DNA of 64,000 nucleotides from Candidatus Nomurabacteria bacterium. GTDB taxonomy: Bacteria; Patescibacteriota; Minisyncoccia; Phycocordibacterales; UBA918. Position 1 is the stretch's first letter; the number at the start of each line of letters is the position of its first letter. Both the position numbers and the translations under genes were made by a program. The stretch lies in the NCBI GenBank assembly GCA_020631995.1, contig JACKGJ010000001.1:97753-161752 (forward strand). The letters are read 5' to 3'. Under the pieces are notes generated by a model that was not told the origin of the DNA, made no database searches, and saw only the letters and a program-made list of their open reading frames with translations. Shown here piece by piece: positions 3,080 to 61,374 of the stretch.

Positions 3080-5269
3080 ATGGAACCCAAAGAAAACGCT
3101 ATAAATCCAGACTTTTTGAAGCCCTATTCCCCTCAGGACAATGAGAAGAATTTGTATAAAAAGTGGGAGGAATCAGGATACTTCAATCCTGATGTCTGTA
3201 TTGAGAGAGGAATCACTGCATCTGATGCTGAGACATTCTCTATTGTGCTTCCTCCACCAAACGTGACTGGAGTACTTCATATGGGTCACGCAGCCATGTT
3301 GGCCGTTGAGGATCTACTAGTGCGTTACCACCGAATGCTCGGCAAGCGTACCTTGTGGATTCCTGGCACCGACTCAGCAGCCATCGCTACTCAGTCAAAG
3401 GTAGAAGGTGAAATCTATAAAAAAGAAAAAAAGACACGACATGATATCGGCCGTGATGAACTCCTTAAAAGAGTAGGAGAATTTGCTGAAGCTAGCAAAG
3501 ACACAATCATTAGTCAGACCAAGAGTATGGGCTCGAGTTTAGACTGGAGTCGTTATGCATACACACTAGATGAAACGCGGTACAAAGCGGTAATGGAAGC
3601 TTTCATGCGGATGTATGATGCCGGACTTATTTACCGTGGTGAGAGGATTGTTAACTGGGACCCAAAGGGACAAACGACCATTTCTGATGATGAGATTGTT
3701 CATGAAGAACGTAAAGAGAAATTCTACTACTTAAAGTACGGACCATTCACTATTGGTACATCACGACCCGAGACAAAGTTTGGTGACAAGTATGTAGTGA
3801 TGCATCCAGACGACGCTCGATATAAGGAGTATGAGCATGGCCAAACGCTTGAACTCGAGTGGATTAATGGACCAATTACCGCCACTGTAATCAAGGATGA
3901 GGCAATTGATATGGAGTTTGGTACTGGTGTAATGACAATCACTCCGTGGCATGATGCAACTGACTTTGAGATTGCAGGTCGTCATAACTTAGATAAGGAA
4001 CAAGTTATTGATGAGCGTGGAATACTACTTCCTATTGCTGGTGAATTTGCAGGTCAACATATTAAGAAGGCGCGTGAAAACATTCTCGAAAAACTTCGCA
4101 GTAAAGGTCTACTGGAGAAAGAAGAGGACTATACACACAACGTTTCAACTGCAGAACGTACCGGCGAGGTTATCGAGCCACAAATTAAGGCCCAGTGGTT
4201 TATTGCAGTTAACAAGAAAGTTGAGTTCCCTGACGGAAGAGTGATGACCCTTAAGGAGCGTATGCGTGAAGCTGTCGAAGGTGAGGAAATAAAGATAGCG
4301 CCAGACCGTTTCAATAAAACCTACTATCACTGGATAGATAACTTACGTGACTGGAACATCTCTCGTCAGATTTGGTTCGGACATCGGGTTCCAGCGTGGT
4401 TCACAGGAAACGAAGTAAAAGTACAAATTGAGTCACCGGGAGAAGGTTGGGAGCAAGATCCTGACACACTGGATACTTGGTTCTCTTCTGGGCTTTGGAC
4501 TTTCTCGACTCTTGGTTGGCCAGAGGAGACAGCAGATTTCAAAACTTACCACCCAACCACTGTCTTAGAGACAGGTTACGACATTTTATTCTTCTGGGTA
4601 GCAAGAATGATTTTGATGAGCACTTTCTTAGTAGGTGAGGTTCCTTTCAAGAATGTTTACCTACACGGTATGGTCCGAGATGGAAAAGGACAAAAAATGT
4701 CAAAGTCTAAAGGAAATATCATTGATCCTTTGGATATGATTGAAAAGTACGGTGCAGACGCAACTCGCTTATCACTAGTAGTGGGAGCTGCTCCAGGGAA
4801 TGACGTACCTCTTTCTGAAGATAAGATTCGCGGCTACAAACACTTCGCTAATAAACTCTGGAACATTAGTCGTTTTGTACTTACTAACACAGAGGGGAAA
4901 AAAGATATTGATAAGTCTTTACTTTCCCCACGTGACCAGGAAATATTAGATGGATTTTACACTGTCGCTAAAGAAGTAGGTGACGATATTGAAAAATTCG
5001 GCTTATACCTTGCAGCCGACAAAGCTTACCATTATGTATGGGATGAACTGGCTGCAAAAATACTCGAGGAATCAAAGCCAATACTAAATGGTGACGATAG
5101 TGAAGCAAAACAAGCACGCCAGCAAGTTTTAATTGAGTGTCTAATTGGTTCATTGAAACTCCTACATCCATTTATGCCGTTTGTAACTGAGGCTGTATGG
5201 CAGAGACTTCCAGAAGATATGAAGGATACTGAATTCTTGATGGTTGCAAAGTGGCCCACAAAGAACTAA
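3080..5269 (+). CDS. valS: valine--tRNA ligase (short form, 729 aa)
   Basis: PPPNVTGVLHMGHA (HIGH), KMSKSKGN (KMSKS), DTWFSSGLWTFSTLGWPE, WNISRQIWFGHRVPAW are ValRS-type class I motifs; lacks the long C-terminal coiled coil. Confidence 0.85.
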   Translation: MEPKENAINPDFLKPYSPQDNEKNLYKKWEESGYFNPDVCIERGITASDAETFSIVLPPPNVTGVLHMGHAAMLAVEDLLVRYHRMLGKRTLWIPGTDSAAIATQSKVEGEIYKKEKKTRHDIGRDELLKRVGEFAEASKDTIISQTKSMGSSLDWSRYAYTLDETRYKAVMEAFMRMYDAGLIYRGERIVNWDPKGQTTISDDEIVHEERKEKFYYLKYGPFTIGTSRPETKFGDKYVVMHPDDARYKEYEHGQTLELEWINGPITATVIKDEAIDMEFGTGVMTITPWHDATDFEIAGRHNLDKEQVIDERGILLPIAGEFAGQHIKKARENILEKLRSKGLLEKEEDYTHNVSTAERTGEVIEPQIKAQWFIAVNKKVEFPDGRVMTLKERMREAVEGEEIKIAPDRFNKTYYHWIDNLRDWNISRQIWFGHRVPAWFTGNEVKVQIESPGEGWEQDPDTLDTWFSSGLWTFSTLGWPEETADFKTYHPTTVLETGYDILFFWVARMILMSTFLVGEVPFKNVYLHGMVRDGKGQKMSKSKGNIIDPLDMIEKYGADATRLSLVVGAAPGNDVPLSEDKIRGYKHFANKLWNISRFVLTNTEGKKDIDKSLLSPRDQEILDGFYTVAKEVGDDIEKFGLYLAADKAYHYVWDELAAKILEESKPILNGDDSEAKQARQQVLIECLIGSLKLLHPFMPFVTEAVWQRLPEDMKDTEFLMVAKWPTKN

Positions 5270-7002: not shown

Positions 7003-7075
7003 GCTTGGGTAGCTCAGTTGGTAGAGCGCTGCCCTGAAGAGGCAGATGTCGGCAGTTCGAGCCTGCCCCCAAGCA
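7003..7075 (+). tRNA. tRNA-Phe (anticodon GAA)
   Basis: Acceptor GCTTGGG/CCCAAGC, anticodon stem CTGCC/GGCAG with loop CTGAAGA, T arm GGCAG-TTCGAGC-CTGCC. Confidence 0.9.
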
Positions 7076-7290
7076 CAGAATAAAATAACCCTGCCTACGC
7101 AGGGTTATTTTATTCTGTGCTTGGGGAGGAAGCCAAAGGCTTGGCTTCCGTGCAGGCTCGAAGCGCCGCAGGATGTTTTTGTGAGCCTGTCCTAGCAAAC
7201 AAAAACCCGATGCGCCGACCAGGAAAGCGAGCTTATTTTGTAAATGTAATGATACAAAATAACCGCTATTCCGGGTCGAGTCTGCTCAAT
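7067..7290. repeat. tRNA-Phe-linked composite element (28-bp perfect palindrome, antisense copy of tRNA 3' half, extra hairpins)
   Basis: 7067-7094 pairs perfectly with 7099-7126, and the left arm includes the last 9 nt of the tRNA. 7152-7162 is the exact reverse complement of T-arm nt 7056-7066, separated by a 25-nt inserted hairpin. Hairpin TTATTTTGTA/TACAAAATAA at 7233-7262. Confidence 0.7.
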
Positions 7291-16128: not shown

Positions 16129-16342
16129 TGGTGTGAGAAAGCTTACAGTGCTTTCGCAAGACCTTTTGAGATATTTTGTAATTCCGAGCTTGTCGAGGAA
16201 GAAACAAAATATACAAAAGGTGTACCGCATCCGTAGGATGAGGAAGCCTGGGAGGCTTTCGCAAGACCTTGCCTGACAATTTATGAGGCGTATAAGCCTC
16301 TATCAATAAATGTCGATAAGGTGTACAGCGACTGTAAGTCGC
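16129..16342 (-). repeat. two tandem copies of the family 1 hairpin core (not tRNA-linked)
   Basis: Minus-strand reads CATCC-TAC-GGATG-C-GGTACACC + long hairpin ACCTTTTGTATATTTTGT/ACAAAATATCTCAAAAGGT + GGTCTTGCGAAAGC..., and GCGAC-TTACA-GTCGC-T-GTACACC + ACCTTATCGACATTTAT/ATAAATTGTCAGGCAAGGT + GGTCTTGCGAAAGC... Confidence 0.65.
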
Positions 16343-16483
16343 AACTACCTCAAGTTTCACCTAATATTACTATCCGCACACCCCTACAGCTACTTTACAT
16401 ACTATTAGAAGAGCGCTTGACGGCGCGATGAAAAGTGACGAGGGTAAACAAGGAGCGCAAGATGCGCTTCTAAAATTAAAATA

Positions 16484-28608: not shown

Positions 28609-28830
28609 ACGTACTAAGAAATTATACTAACCACTTCACGTGCAAAGGTGAGAACGAGATTGAGTCCAGTAATCATAAAATCCACAAACAATTCCAATAG
28701 CTTGAGTAAGAAGTTGAGAAAAGTTTTGATGATAGCAATAAGGCTGTCCATAGGTAGATTTTATCATATGTTTATTGAAAGAAGGGACTTGGTCATGAAA
28801 ATTTTACTGCGTAAAATTTCTCGACCCGTG

Positions 28831-29076
28831 AAAAGCAAAACTGTTTGCTTTTCACCGCTTGGCTACGGCATCGCTCCGGTCTTCAAGTCCCTATACCAGC
28901 AAAGCAGTTGTTTGTGAGGGGACTTGAAACTTACAGTTTCAGTACACCTTTTCGATATTCCCCTTCACAAGTTCTGGGAATATCTGAAAAGGTCTTCAAG
29001 TCCCACAAGACAGTTCCCCGAACTGTCTTTTTCGCTCACACAAAATAAAAGCCCCCATTAGGGGGCTTTTATTTTG
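28831..29076 (+). repeat. tRNA-Asp-linked composite element (family 1 core plus copies of the tRNA-Asp T-arm/acceptor 3' half)
   Basis: GAAACT-TAC-AGTTTC hairpin, GTACACC, long hairpin ACCTTTTCGATATTCCCC/GGGAATATCTGAAAAGGT. Then TTCAAGTCCC, a 26-nt hairpin and TTCGCTCACACAAAATA, which together are the reverse complement of tRNA-Asp nt ~29071-29096. Extra GGGACTTGAA/TTCAAGTCCC copies at 28882-28926. Confidence 0.7.
29044..29076. terminator. bidirectional terminator next to the tRNA-Asp 3' end
   Basis: AAATAAAAGCCCCCATTAGGGGGCTTTTATTTTG. Confidence 0.75.
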
Positions 29077-29221: not shown

Positions 29222-29384
29222 AATTTGTGTCGACGGGAGGGATGAAGCTTACAGCTTCCGTACACCTTTTCGATATTTCCTTTCATTACTTCAGGAAATA
29301 TCTGAAAAGGTCATCATTCTCTCCCGCGCACAAAATCACTCTTGCGCAAAGCTCCATGCATTCGCTTTACGCTCGGTGTTTTTG
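29222..29384 (+). repeat. tRNA-Met-linked composite element (family 1 core plus direct and inverted copies of the tRNA 3' half)
   Basis: 19-nt exact direct repeat TTTGTGTCGACGGGAGGGA at 29224-29242 and 29381-29399 (the latter inside the tRNA). GAAGCT-TAC-AGCTTC hairpin, GTACACC, 17-bp hairpin, then inverted copy TCATCATTCTCTCCCGCGCACAAAAT at 29311-29336. Confidence 0.7.
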
Positions 29385-29532: not shown

Positions 29533-29540
29533 GTTTCTTG

Positions 29541-29872
29541 TTGCGGGGCCTGGAATTGAACCAGGGTCTGGAGGTTCTGTTATTCGCTCACTTTCATGAG
29601 TGCATGGACTATCCCATATTCCTGGATTAAAATATCCTTAGGAACTCTCCATTATAGTCTCTGAACCTTCCGTCTGCTTTCGCAGAGGGCTTGGCTGCCG
29701 ATTGCCGAATCTTTACTTTTTTAAAGCATTCACACTCACCCTCTCAGGTCATGTTGTAGCAAGCAAAGCTCTAACGGTATTCCAGCAATTTAGAAGATTT
29801 TTCCATACCGCATTACTGCGATAGGTCACAGTTTCCTATGAGCCTCCCGAGGTACCACTCCTCTACCCCGCT
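29541..29872 (-). tRNA. tRNA(CAT) with initiator-like features, interrupted by a group I intron (exons 29872-29838 and 29576-29541)
   Basis: Spliced sequence gives AGCGGGG-TA-GAGG-AGTGGTA-CCTC-G-GGAGG-CTCATAA-CCTCC-AGAC-CCTGG-TTCAATT-CCAGG-CCCCGCA-A. Features: 1:72 mismatch (A:A) and A11:T24. Confidence 0.8.
29577..29837 (-). ncRNA. group I self-splicing intron (261 nt, no ORF) in the anticodon loop after CAU
   Basis: 5' exon ends in U and the intron ends in G. P1 UCAU/GUGA; P2 hairpin AUCGCA-GUAA-UGCGGU. Classical P/Q/R/S elements: AAAUUGCUGGAAU, AAUCGGCAGCC, GGUUCAGAGACUAUAAUGG, GGGAUAGUCC. Confidence 0.8.
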
Positions 29873-29974
29873 GTGTGCTGAAAGATTGTACCACTTACTA
29901 CCTAAAAGTCCAGCATTATCTCTTTGTGTAAGAAGCCTAAAATTTAGACGATTTCGAGGCACGCGAGGAAAATG

Positions 29975-30115
29975 GCACGAGCCGTATATGGACATACGGT
30001 GTGAGAAAGTCTAGGAGACTTTTGCAAGAGGTTGGCAGCTATTCTGACGCAAGGAAGAATAGCGACAACCTAAACAGCTTCTGTAAGAAGTGACATTTTG
30101 TCGAAGCGTAACAAA
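29975..30115 (-). repeat. hybrid repeat: CGTATATGGACATACG hairpin (family 2) plus a divergent family 1 core
   Basis: GTGTGAGAAAGTCTAGGAGACTTTTGCAAGAGG parallels 16129-16160. Hairpin GGTTGGCAGCTATTC/GAATAGCGACAACC replaces P3. CTTC-TGTAA-GAAG replaces P2. Confidence 0.45.
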
Positions 30116-50659: not shown

Positions 50660-50836
50660 TCAGCAAACGTCGATGCGTTTCTGCGGCTCGTCAGAGTGAT
50701 GACACCCTGGCAACCGTCTTGGATGGACCTCTTTTGGATCCAAGTCCCCGTCGGCGACTGCGCGCCAAAGTTCTGAAGGTGGGCCACACTCAGCCACACC
50801 TTCACCATTGCTTCCAAGGTCAGTTTTATCGGCCAT
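50660..50836 (-). CDS. small Cys/His-containing protein (58 aa), G+C-rich
   Basis: Below the track cutoff. Own translation MADKTDLGSNGEGVAECGPPSELWRAVADGDLDPKEVHPRRLPGCHHSDEPQKRIDVC. AAGGAG 7 nt upstream; terminator downstream. The overlapping 132-aa track ORF is in another frame. Confidence 0.5.
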   Translation of the reverse strand: MADKTDLGSNGEGVAECGPPSELWRAVADGDLDPKEVHPRRLPGCHHSDEPQKRIDVC

Positions 50837-51109
50837 TTTTTACTCCTTGTTGTTGATCGTTTCTTGCTCAAAGTACTAAACCCTCTCCTTAAGACAAAGG
50901 GCCAACCCGTTTCCGGATTGGCTCTTTGTTTCTTGGAGTGTTACCACTACACGCGAGCCAACCCGATTCTATTTCCGAGAATCGCCAGAGACACAAAGAA
51001 AAACCAATTTAGTTTCCCAGTATGCCCTGTTGTCGACTTGCCTGCCATAAAGTGAATATAACTCCGTCTCACAGAACAGTCAACCGAGAGTAGTGCCTAG
51101 TGTGGATAA

Positions 51110-51346
51110 TCTAGAATATTACATCCTCCTTGATTCACTGCGTTCATCTGCGGAGGATGTGAGATTCGGTCACTCTTATGGATATTTTGTATTACTTCGC
51201 TCACAAAATATCTCATTCGCTCAACCCCACCTCACTCGCCTCCGGCATCGTTCCGGTTTTCGAATCTCACCGCGAGACACGCAGGTGTCTCGCTCATCCT
51301 CCGCGAATACAAAAAAGTCGCCAAATGGCGCGCTAATTTGTATTCG
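51110..51346 (+). repeat. tRNA-Ser(ACU)-linked composite element
   Basis: 19-nt exact direct repeat GCGGAGGATGTGAGATTCG (51150-51168 vs 51346-51364 in the tRNA). Hairpin GGATATTTTGT/ACAAAATATC. GGCATCGTTCCGGTTTT module. Inverted copy CGAATCTCAC, 25-nt hairpin, ATCCTCCGCGAATACAAA (18-bp perfect with 51337-51354). Confidence 0.7.
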
Positions 51347-51433
51347 CGGAGGATGTGAGATTCGAACTCACGGGCGGTTTTACCCGCCGGCGGTTTAGTA
51401 AACCGCTGGTTTAAACCACTCACCCAATCCTCC
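51347..51433 (-). tRNA. type II tRNA, Ser-like, anticodon reads ACT (unusual)
   Basis: Acceptor GGAGGAT/ATCCTCC, discriminator G, anticodon stem GCGGT/ACCGC with loop TTACTAA, long variable arm GGCGG-GTAAAA-CCGCC, T arm GTGAG-TTCGAAT-CTCAC. Confidence 0.7.
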
Positions 51434-51493
51434 ATTTGTTTATGCAATGTGACTGAGGGAATTTCTCTCATTACTTTCGAGTGAGCGAGCGAA

Positions 51494-51677
51494 ATGGAAA
51501 TTTATTTACATTTCCGAACGAACGCTGAAAGAAAGCTTGCTTACAGAGCAGTACACCTTTTGGATATTTTATTTCACTTTGCTCATAAACTATCTCAAAA
51601 GGTCTTCGAATCCCTCCTTTTCTCGCAGAATATAATCACAAAAAGCTCCGAGCATTCGCTTTTTGTTCTTTATTCTG
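51494..51677 (+). repeat. tRNA-Ser(GCU)-linked composite element
   Basis: GTACACC plus hairpin ACCTTTTGGATATTTTAT/ATAAACTATCTCAAAAGGT. Then TTCGAATCCCTCCTTTTC(t)CGCAGAATA at 51605-51632, a near-perfect reverse complement of tRNA nt 51671-51697. Loop motif AAGCTCCGAGCATTCGCTTT shared with the Met locus. Confidence 0.7.
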
Positions 51678-51764
51678 CGGAAAAGGAGGGATTCGAACCC
51701 TCGAGGGTTTTAACACCCTACCTCCTTAGCAAGGAGGCACATTCGACCACTCTGACACTTTTCC
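51678..51764 (-). tRNA. tRNA-Ser (anticodon GCT)
   Basis: Acceptor GGAAAAG/CTTTTCC, discriminator G, anticodon stem CCTCC/GGAGG with loop TTGCTAA, long variable arm, T arm GAGGG-TTCGAAT-CCCTC. Confidence 0.85.
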
Positions 51765-60994: not shown

Positions 60995-61374
60995 GGGGAT
61001 GACAGGCATCGACGGTTTGCATCGTTCATCCACGCAATGCCGAAATTGGAATCAATTCGTTAAGAGGTTCCATCTGTATCTGCAAACAAAGCAATACCAA
61101 GTCCGTTCTCATACGGATTCGCCTTCGCTCGAGCGTAAGTTCGCGTAGGTGACGCTAACCCGCCCTATGTCTAATAAGGTGGCGTTAGTGGAATAGCATT
61201 AGGCTCTAGATAATTAATTTGTTCCATTAGTTATCCGAATTGTTAGGGACTGCTCGCAGTGAGGTTTTGCTAAATTTTTCACTCACTACGCTAAGATTAA
61301 AACTTAGCTATGCATTGTAGAAGTGTATGGACGACCATTCTCGGACGGGAGTTCAACTCTCCCCATCTCCACCA
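60995..61374 (+). ncRNA. ssrA: tmRNA (SsrA)
   Basis: 5' GGGGATGACAGGCATCGACGG, 3' GGACGGGAGTTCAACTCTCCCCATCTCCACCA with G3:U70. Tag ORF 61082-61138 encodes ANKAIPSPFSYGFAFARA*. Confidence 0.92.

Follow-up and report, generated by a model that had tools for sequence, protein, structure and literature searches.

Why should two neighbouring tRNA-Ser genes each be followed by copies of its own 3' end, set among hairpins that the flanks of other tRNA genes share? The question was posed by a preliminary description, read from the letters alone, of positions 51,110-51,677 of a 64,000-nucleotide (nt) stretch of Candidatus Nomurabacteria bacterium DNA (contig JACKGJ010000001.1 of assembly GCA_020631995.1; hereafter the window), which had assigned to each of four tRNAs (the two tRNA-Ser, tRNA-Met and tRNA-Asp) an element customised to itself. 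The elements are insertional, polymorphic and spread throughout Patescibacteria (Candidate Phyla Radiation, CPR), and they copy whatever lies upstream. On balance we favour the reading that the flanks of the tRNA-Ser genes are Patescibacteria-wide small, noncoding, hairpin-rich insertion modules, and that their tRNA-derived repeats are probably footprints of insertion or template switching.

Both tRNA-Ser genes and their flanks lie on the minus strand (Table 1). At tRNA-Ser(ACU), the 19-nt sequence GCGGAGGATGTGAGATTCG forming the 3' end of the gene (51346-51364) recurs exactly downstream as a direct copy (X, 51150-51168), spanning T-loop C56 through the nucleotide that follows the discriminator. 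Between the two lies an inverted copy (X'a and X'b) interrupted by a 25-nt hairpin: the segment 51296-51313 (18 nt) is perfectly complementary to 51337-51354, 9 nt of trailer included, as part of 24-nt inverted arms matching at 92% (51290-51313/51337-51360), while a second pair of 12-nt arms matches at 100% (51259-51270/51355-51366). Both the direct repeat and the split inverted copy had been described in these terms, and every repeat coordinate held on re-checking. The type-2 module that follows X'b, found also after tRNA-Asp in the window and in the relative UBA6201, contains the GGCATCGTTCCGGT motif and a copy of the "family hairpin" (51178-51216) that partially matches R1, our covariance model of the type-1 core (25 bits). 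The palindrome of trailer, GC hairpin and anti-trailer next to the tRNA looks like a terminator; a simple terminator scan did not call it. In the predicted fold, X'a and X'b pair with X into a perfect acceptor/T "minihelix" with the module in T-loop position, and the 25-nt hairpin takes the place from which a tRNA's D and anticodon domain would project.

At tRNA-Ser(GCU), which has a promoter-like TTGAAA-17-TAGTAT upstream (51802-51774), the order is tRNA, 12-nt A-rich trailer, hairpin 1 (hp1), inverted copy X', type-1 core and a decayed direct copy. The template of X' is the last 21 nt of the tRNA plus 7 nt of trailer; the near-perfect reverse complement first described here was confirmed as a 28-nt inverted copy, with arms 51605-51622/51680-51697 (18 nt, 100%) extended by 51619-51632/51671-51684. 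X' terminates in the T-loop palindrome (..ATTCGAA) with the core directly next, and hp1 sits within the loop of a long hairpin built by the tRNA 3' end and its inverted copy. In the core, hp2 is a long imperfect hairpin, GACCUUUUG-A-GAUA..UAUC-CAAAAGGU, with one conserved bulged A, and hp3 is split by a 71-nt insertion (..GCGUUCGUUCGGAAAUGUAAAUAAAUUUCCAUUUCGCUCGCUCAC..); similar sequence lies next to elements in another CPR locus (L079), and the piece looks like a putative fourth small insertion family that nests in hairpin loops. The decayed direct copy reads AAAUUCCCUCCGUCUCA in the closest relative, L118, a version that resembles the CGTCTCC acceptor strand of an L120-type tRNA. Against dinucleotide shuffles, the minus strand folds with z = -8.8 here (51440-51700) and with z = -7.6 at the tRNA-Ser(ACU) unit (51140-51345).

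The spacer motif, the "GGCATCG" module and the family hairpin, described separately at first, are parts of one modular system. The family hairpin does occur in both tRNA-Ser loci (51175-51215 versus 51557-51597, 83% identical), and the compensatory differences reported between the Ser, Met and Asp hairpins are real and form part of a family-wide covariation signal. The spacer motif reported from the Ser(GCU) and Met loci is another hairpin of the family (hp1); as AAGCTCCRWGCATTCGCTTT it is present only at 29349-29368 and 51643-51662 in the window, where none is expected. The GGCATCG.. module reported from the Ser(ACU) and Asp loci belongs to the type-2 module, and as GGCATCGYTCCGGTYTT is present only at 28867 and 51244, modestly above chance (0.34 matches expected; two matches reached in 6 of 100 shuffles).

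An R1 scan of the window returned six full type-1 copies, namely those after tRNA-Asp, tRNA-Met and tRNA-Ser(GCU), a tandem pair, and one match at 30022-30092 (+), plus the partial match in the tRNA-Ser(ACU) unit. After tRNA-Asp, the first of two units consists of terminator palindrome, X'a, hairpin, X'b, type-1 core (28925-29000) and partial X, and the second of another X'b, a type-2 module and X (~28781-28895); UBA6201 has the orthologous arrangement. The scaffold at tRNA-Phe starts with a perfect terminator palindrome of 28 bp, of which the final 10 nt of the tRNA form part; X'a, hp1 and X'b come next, then a module of a third type and a decayed X. This third type, GCGYCG..GAUG-hairpin-..GCGCCGACCARGAAAGCGAGC-hairpin-CCGCUAUUCYGGG, also follows tRNA-Thr(GGU) of UBA6201 (L018 ~1180-1460). 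The elements are real, related and non-random and carry copies of their own tRNAs, as proposed, but they are special neither to four tRNAs nor to this genome.

The gene order RecG, malic enzyme, tRNA-Ser region, SWIB, glutamate dehydrogenase is kept in four relatives, in which the tRNA-Ser region was compared. Both tRNAs, each with its element, are present in L118, whose malic enzyme is 95% identical. In L120 (92%) the sole tRNA-Ser is tRNA-Ser(GCU), followed directly by the downstream promoter region; this genome lacks a ~550-nt block (51114-51664) that includes tRNA-Ser(ACU) and has the decayed inverted copy at 51114-51129 as its right-hand end. L121 (90%) and L122 (88%) likewise have tRNA-Ser(GCU) only, with a different acceptor stem; the inverted copy of their element fits their own tRNA, GGUUG/CAACC replaces CCUUUUG/CAAAAGG in the L121 core, and neither tRNA-Ser(ACU) nor a type-2 element was found in either. 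tRNA-Ser(ACU), lying inside the block missing from L120, may have arrived together with the elements. This tRNA has an unusual anticodon (A34), and its window and L118 copies differ at one compensated site.

UBA6201, syntenic with the window over 16 kb, provided further filled and empty sites. Compared with it, the window has a clean 87-nt insertion (29997-30083) between ..ACGGTG and AGTG.., with no duplication; after tRNA-Thr(GGU) there is a full unit in UBA6201 and a terminator only in the window; and after tRNA-Gln UBA6201 has a 62-nt insert plus 30-nt duplicate where the window is empty. At the 16-kb locus the two differ by one unit in a mosaic that is not reducible to a single event. Individual copies also decay: L118 reads AACC in place of the conserved GACC and GGUAUAC in place of GGUGUAC, its X' no longer fits the tRNA, and the inner hairpin of type 2 is swapped for a different one despite malic enzymes that are 95% identical; in UBA6201 the Met copy is degraded in core, hp3 and X. 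Because of the empty sites in L120 (Ser) and UBA6201 (87-nt), the elements behave as insertional DNA, and decay at copy level together with conservation at family level is what mobile DNA shows. The preliminary description had named a simple mobile repeat, with empty sites and identical ends, as the outcome that would overturn it: the empty sites exist, but the ends are locus-specific copies of the target.

How general the copying is was assessed in two ways. Around 125 non-redundant cores, an exact direct repeat of at least 12 nt spanned the element in 19 cases (0 in controls), and upstream sequence of at least 9 nt recurred inverted beside the core in 15 (4-5 in controls). A census then covered 117 distinct tRNA genes from all loci collected, with the upstream flank as control, scoring exact inverted copies of at least 10 nt of the 3' end within 250 nt downstream and direct copies of at least 12 nt between 30 and 450 nt downstream. 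Inverted copies followed 50 of the tRNA genes (none upstream), direct copies 39 (one upstream) and both kinds 26, fractions that may overestimate the genome-wide rate as the loci were picked for containing a core. The general layout (tRNA, terminator palindrome, X'a, hairpin, X'b, module, X) recurs at no fewer than ten tRNA species and two protein-gene ends, the full scaffold being customised to tRNAs for Asp, Arg, Lys, Leu(UAA), Leu(GAG), Gly, Ser(CGA) and Asn.

Copying is moreover not peculiar to tRNAs, as first thought, since the terminal codons of rplK and of an FtsZ-like gene have flank copies of both kinds, inverted and direct. At L006 a 35-nt repeat of the last FtsZ-like codons is accompanied by an inverted copy, and in 8 genomes among the matches listed the core overlaps the rplK end, where the final codons and their complement form a hairpin. 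Nor is it confined to 3' ends: L043 has a perfect 65-nt repeat of upstream DNA plus nt 1-9 of tRNA-Asn, L024 and L082 have 45-nt repeats of the 5' parts of tRNA-Val and tRNA-Phe, and L093 has a 37-nt repeat of an antisense tRNA-Phe. Direct duplications range from 0 to 74 nt. One subfamily (L004, L111, L116 and others) shares an outer stem of 20-31 bp.

An intact tRNA with a displaced 3' copy is the textbook signature of tRNA-integrating islands (PMC4383910), and an attB in the T-loop is on record (PMC1762012). The units might then be scars or miniature derivatives of tRNA-targeting integrase elements (attL/attR pairs or cis-mobilisable remnants), in which crossover by a tyrosine integrase in the T-loop supplied a new 3' end and displaced the old one downstream. 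In keeping with this, most direct copies begin in the T-loop, 19-21 nt from the end of the tRNA, and an intact tRNA is retained in every case; the copy displaced beyond the Ser(GCU) element in the window and in L118 resembles an L120-type acceptor strand and not the present tRNA. We nevertheless judge this origin improbable: i) the repeats are mostly only 100-260 nt apart (39-416 nt overall), with no open reading frame (ORF), integrase or cargo between them; ii) no integrase recurs nearby; iii) a crossover duplicates the loop directly, not inverted, whereas the non-palindromic TTCGAGC of tRNA-Phe appears as GCTCGAA; iv) this origin does not account for duplicated 5' portions of tRNAs (up to positions 9, 19, 43 and 53); and v) nor does it account for the duplicated protein-gene ends or the clean, duplication-free insertion.

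The spread of the family was examined by an exact-pattern genome scan (24-nt pattern, one genome per species), which found the core in at least 117 contigs. Among the matches listed, all but three contigs were labelled as, or consistent with, Patescibacteria, including Saccharibacteria, Paceibacteria and Kaiser-, Nomura-, Taylor-, Lloyd- and Vogelbacteria; non-CPR labels are attached to the remaining three, two of which are shorter than 5 kb. The pattern was present in 13 further contigs from metagenomes. It had 0 matches in viral contigs, and viral carriage was rejected. The canonical unit is (GG)UGAG-hp1-CGCAA-GACC[hp2]GGU-GUAC-hp3, frequently closed by an outer stem; a type-1 unit (~75-90 nt) runs from hp1 through a long imperfect hp2, in which a single A is bulged, and the GUAC junction to hp3, which has a GUA triloop. 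An hp1-type hairpin (GAAGCGAAUACUUGGAGCUUC) stands upstream of the core at many CPR loci. Head-to-tail type-1 arrays occur at L054 (1471-1627, period ~87 nt) and L052 (6560-6700), where the 3' strand of hp3 runs into the GGUGAG of the next unit. Some type-1 units (L035, L055, L108, L110, L117) are nested in a conserved context, ..GAAGGGGGUCGGG / unit / ..UUCCCCGUGGAGGAAGG..GGAAAACCGU.., which may be a further module or a larger RNA.

Base-pair covariation of the core is strong. In an alignment of 56 core sequences 91% of cells were paired (76% in shuffles), the covariation score was 0.363 (0.095 in shuffles, reached in 0 of 500; 0.07-0.09 in slid controls), and 17 of the 24 pairs showed double changes; the GUGAG/CGCAA flanks of hp1 also covary, by eye. 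Rfam scans at gathering thresholds of the window and 18 loci reported only tRNAs, the transfer-messenger RNA (tmRNA) and one group I intron, permissive Rfam 15 scans (E up to 5) of three window regions gave matches at chance level, and literature searches found no description of the family. The repeat family is apparently undescribed.

Such covariation would be expected of a functional structured RNA transcribed with the tRNA or the upstream gene, serving either as an element of 3'-end processing, stability or termination or as a stable tRNA-like noncoding RNA. In the latter version X'/X would mimic the acceptor/T minihelix of the neighbour, with the module at the T-loop position, and RNase P, RNase Z and the CCA-adding enzyme would mature the RNA. 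Several observations agree with it: i) among the matches listed, elements lie on the strand of nearby tRNAs in 39 cases versus 5, and share the strand of upstream ORFs; ii) the core is conserved across CPR classes; iii) the strongly folded tRNA-Ser(ACU) unit combines an acceptor-like stem, a hairpin and a T-like stem around the module; iv) the direct copy retains the discriminator and a few trailer nt, often with its own terminator next; v) two compensatory changes maintain X'/X pairing in diverging orthologues (Asp GCGAG/CUCGC to GUGAG/CUCAC, and one Met pair); and vi) the units are frequent, at a third or more of the sampled tRNA genes, in otherwise streamlined genomes. On the other hand, the most conserved positions decay between close relatives and outright losses occur, one copy (29997-30083) is antisense to both adjacent genes, the outer stem is tRNA-like only beside tRNAs while codons are copied at protein genes, and a terminator-like hairpin between the tRNA and most of the unit makes co-transcription uncertain. 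We therefore hold such a function to be unlikely as the explanation, although it could coexist with the insertional one, the two not being exclusive. Somewhat along the same lines, patescibacterial tRNA genes might be extended as a rule by self-templated "pseudo-tRNA" units, each with a perfect acceptor/T minihelix templated by the 3' end of the tRNA, a simple hairpin for the body and the module in the T-loop; they would represent either a new class of noncoding RNA that borrows the tRNA maturation machinery or hairpin-driven spread of DNA with target-templated ends and no recognisable transposase. This idea seems to us conceivable but doubtful.

The order of the repeats bears on how they were made. 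The succession direct, inverted, direct (X, palindrome, X', module, X) is what fold-back and return template switches would be expected to produce; X' ends at the T-loop palindrome, and the A-rich and T-rich tracts belong to the palindrome of trailer and anti-trailer. The whole arrangement might even be an enzyme-free by-product of replication, in which terminator and T-loop palindromes provoke fold-back and template-switch errors with no dedicated element or function. The order X, hairpin, X', module, X is the classic outcome of two such switches; the A-rich trailer and T-rich anti-trailer lie within the palindrome, and X' stops at palindromic TTCGAA; after tRNA-Met of L124 a palindrome including the acceptor strand stands with no core; and 16% of the tRNAs with such copies lack a type-1 core in their vicinity, 15 of 49 having inverted and 11 of 49 direct copies. 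Replication errors would, however, have had to bring the same module, with its conserved non-helical bases (bulged A, GUAC, GUA triloop), to unrelated loci in distant CPR lineages, and they leave the clean 87-nt insertion unexplained; we regard them as a very improbable sole cause.

The most economical account is that the modules are non-autonomous and that the tRNA-derived repeats are footprints of their arrival. Modules would enter, or be copied into, the DNA immediately downstream of genes, those for tRNAs most often, and insertion would leave copies of the target on both sides, the inverted X' at the 5' side of the module and the direct X at its 3' side. The footprints could arise either through copying by fold-back or template switch where the terminator and T-loop palindromes lie, or through recombination between the tRNA gene and a small intermediate that carries X. 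The repeats would not be working parts of the tRNA, and the conserved sequence of the family would reflect the needs of spreading, as a single-stranded hairpin substrate or a structured RNA. The antisense copy at 29997-30083 speaks for this account.

Several points weigh against it: i) within 1.5 kb of the 117 loci there is no recurrent gene for a transposase, integrase or reverse transcriptase, the neighbouring ORFs being housekeeping genes; ii) no single known mechanism covers clean insertions, direct duplications of 13-74 nt and inverted copies together; iii) the compensated X'/X pairs suggest either constraint on the outer stem or homogenisation of the palindrome; iv) the rplK 3' end (8 genomes) and the tRNA-Asp flank (several) look stably inherited; v) such inheritance, conservation of the core over very deep CPR lineages, the bias of orientation towards that of nearby tRNAs and the excess of G.U over A.C in the helices (32 versus 19) would also fit a functional RNA; and vi) 24 positions were fixed by the search pattern, which inflates their conservation by ascertainment.

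CPR genomes are among the smallest and most streamlined, yet at least a third of the sampled tRNA genes carry copies of their own 3' ends together with hairpin modules. If mobile, the modules constitute a previously unlisted repeat family that shapes tRNA loci and is able to confuse the annotation of tRNAs and genomic islands; they may reveal an unusual insertion mechanism with target-templated ends, and may carry tRNA genes along. If they are functional RNAs, they form a CPR-wide structured RNA class absent from Rfam.

The window itself is a small bacterial (Patescibacteria) chromosome. It has a G+C content of ~43%, encodes FtsH, RecG, NAD-dependent DNA ligase (LigA), GatA, a class I tRNA synthetase (LeuRS), PilB/PilM, glutamate dehydrogenase and malic enzyme, and has 10 tRNA genes, a tmRNA and a group I intron (ARAGORN, Rfam); its relatives are uncultured Patescibacteria of Kaiserbacteria/Paceibacteria type. 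Scattered tRNAs and a tmRNA had hinted at a jumbo phage, an origin ruled out by the housekeeping genes and by synteny with CPR metagenome-assembled genomes (MAGs); a phage database search of the window gave tRNA-level matches only. In the tRNAs inspected (both Ser, Met, Asp, Phe) the 3' CCA is not gene-encoded, and the terminator palindromes of several window tRNAs start within the acceptor 3' strand, for example at tRNA-Phe (7067-7126, 28 bp perfect). The tmRNA (60995-61374, +) is of the standard one-piece type with tag peptide ANKAIPSPFSYGFAFARA. A tRNA with a CAU anticodon (29533-29880, -), whose paired G1-C72 makes it of elongator Met or Ile2 type, is interrupted directly after the anticodon (CUCAU/..AA) by a group I intron (~29585-29849); its UBA6201 orthologue (L018 ~4535-4605) is intronless, so that the intron is polymorphic between close relatives. 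Beyond the tRNA-Ser region, a promoter-like TTGACT-17-TATATT (51083-51055) precedes a ~170-nt leader (50880-51085, -) of a 58-aa ORF (50660-50836, -); the leader is kept in L118 and L120, has no Rfam match, and may be an unlisted cis-regulatory RNA.

Table 1. Repeat units and associated features of the window, with the evidence for each
Feature	Position	Strand	Evidence or remark
tRNA-Ser(GCU)	51677-51764	-	ARAGORN; Rfam tRNA 53.4 bits
hp1 hairpin ("spacer motif"), AAAAAGC-GAAUGCUCGGA-GCUUUUU	51640-51664	-	motif search, fold
X', 28-nt inverted copy of T-loop, T-stem, acceptor 3' strand and trailer	51605-51632	-	repeat search, sequence
Type-1 core: hp2, junction GUAC, 5' half of hp3	51534-51610	-	R1 73.7 bits, E = 3e-14
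71-nt extra insertion splitting hp3 just past GUAAG loop	51469-51539	-	missing in closest relative L118
Decayed direct copy of a tRNA-Ser(GCU) 3' end, AGAGAAAUUCCCUCAGUCAC	51447-51468 (approximate)	-	L118 comparison
tRNA-Ser(ACU)	51346-51433	-	ARAGORN, Rfam; among compared genomes only in window and closest relative L118
Palindrome of trailer, GC hairpin and anti-trailer, GAAUACAAA - GCGCC AUUU GGCG - UUUGUAUUC	51305-51345	-	sequence, fold
X'a, inverted copy part 1, GCGGAGGAU	51296-51304	-	repeat search, fold
25-nt hairpin dividing X'a and X'b	51271-51295	-	repeat search, fold
X'b, inverted copy part 2, GUGAGAUUCGAA	51259-51270	-	repeat search, fold
Type-2 module, AACCGGAACGAUGCCGG..GAGGUGGGGUUGAG-[long A/U hairpin]-..GUGAC	51169-51258	-	motif search, partial R1 match
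X, 19-nt exact direct copy of tRNA-Ser(ACU) 3' end	51150-51168	-	repeat search, fold
Extra decayed inverted copy, GGAGGAUGUAAUAUUC	51114-51129	-	repeat search; L120 comparison
Unit after tRNA-Met: hp1 29348-29368, X' 29313-29335, type-1 core 29243-29318, 19-nt direct X 29224-29242	29224-29368	-	R1 80 bits
Two tandem units after tRNA-Asp	28781-29075	-	R1 81 bits
Two tandem type-1 units, no tRNA nearby	16154-16343	+	R1 73 and 60 bits; one unit in UBA6201
87-nt type-1 element, UGAG-hp1-UGCAAGA-hp2-UAAAC-hp3	29997-30083	+	R1 44.6 bits, E = 8e-8; alignment
Same scaffold after tRNA-Phe	7067-7290	+	module type shared with tRNA-Thr flank of UBA6201

A number of known identities were considered and set aside. 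Known Rfam families (tRNA-like RNAs, ribozymes, T-box, group I intron, leaders) gave no match, and for hammerhead, hairpin, twister and hatchet ribozymes the core motifs are moreover not conserved. Patescibacteria frequently carry group I introns in their tRNA genes (PMC13011429); the elements match none and lie outside intact tRNAs, the sole Intron_gpI match being that at 29585-29849. A DNA uptake sequence was rejected, since the 14-nt arm motif (up to 3 mismatches) had 27 matches versus 14 expected in 64 kb, too weak an excess. A reading of hp3 as an anticodon arm (CUGUAAG = Tyr) was rejected, as U33 and A37 covary as a base pair. Mimicry of the ribosomal L1 stalk or L1-binding site (8 copies follow rplK, with a resemblance to E. 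coli 23S rRNA) was dropped without formal test: the sequence shared upstream of the rplK-linked cores is the C-terminal codons of L11, the hairpin at the rplK site is an inverted copy of the gene end, and rplA is not among the ORFs that recur downstream of the loci.

The closest known kinds are palindromic repeats of the type of REP sequences and miniature inverted-repeat transposable elements (MITEs), and the att-site duplications of tRNA genes. Like REP/BIME and REPIN-RAYT sequences of E. coli and Pseudomonas, the elements are short, multi-copy, noncoding imperfect palindromes located after genes and near terminators, with hairpins preserved by compensatory change; on its opposite strand hp2 presents the tetranucleotide GTAC and then an imperfect palindrome in which a single base lies outside the helix, and in sequence thereby resembles the single-stranded substrates of Y1 (HUH) transposases. 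They differ in that no RAYT is associated, the core is conserved superphylum-wide rather than in one lineage, copies of the local target are carried, and each module has several hairpins. When all ORFs of 0.9 Mb were searched with phmmer, a single Y1_Tnp ORF came up (L042 317-991, Pfam E = 6e-18), flanked by GGGGTCAGACCCC hairpins and not by the core; a RAYT/IS200 link was rejected as the hairpins of this sole Y1 transposase are unrelated. It belongs to a Saccharibacteria MAG, where L042 1-1070 holds the RAYT-like transposase with a partial 5' duplication, and with its hairpins suggests a separate REP-like system.

As in MITEs and palindromic elements (of Rickettsia, the Correia elements of Neisseria, ERIC, RUP, BOX), the units are non-autonomous, 80-250 bp long and of high folding potential, show insertion polymorphism with filled and empty orthologous sites, and lie at or inside gene ends (here rplK and FtsZ-like codons); like those of Rickettsia, they are abundant despite a reduced genome. 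MITEs, however, have family-wide terminal inverted repeats and short target duplications of fixed length, whereas here the outer repeat usually copies the end of the neighbouring gene, outer stems linked to tRNAs are locus-specific rather than common to all copies, and target duplications vary from 0 to 74 nt (none at the clean insertion, 30 nt at tRNA-Gln of UBA6201, 13-74 nt elsewhere).

A further comparison is with the E. coli tyrT operon, where every 178-bp repeat closes with 19 nt from the 3' end of tRNA-Tyr. About 19 nt of tRNA 3' end are thus repeated downstream in the same transcription unit, but tyrT has neither an inverted copy nor a conserved structured module, and is a single locus against a third of tRNA genes here. 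With tRNA-targeting integrative elements (Islander-type; Ms6 with its attB in the T-loop) the units share an intact tRNA, a displaced 3' copy starting in the T-loop (found at 39 of the 117 tRNAs) and a match between element and own tRNA; they differ in having no integrase or cargo, a spacing of 100-260 nt, an extra inverted copy, and 5'-part and non-tRNA targets. Fold-back and template-switch rearrangements (templated mutation at quasi-palindromes; duplication, inverted triplication, duplication) show the same direct-inverted-direct order, junctions at palindromes and variable duplication lengths, but are sporadic, whereas here the same conserved module is delivered each time. With tRNA-like RNAs (the tmRNA domain, YrlA, viral examples) the units would share a perfect acceptor-like and T-like stem, as predicted by folding. 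What sets the family apart from the known kinds is its target-templated ends and the breadth of its conservation.

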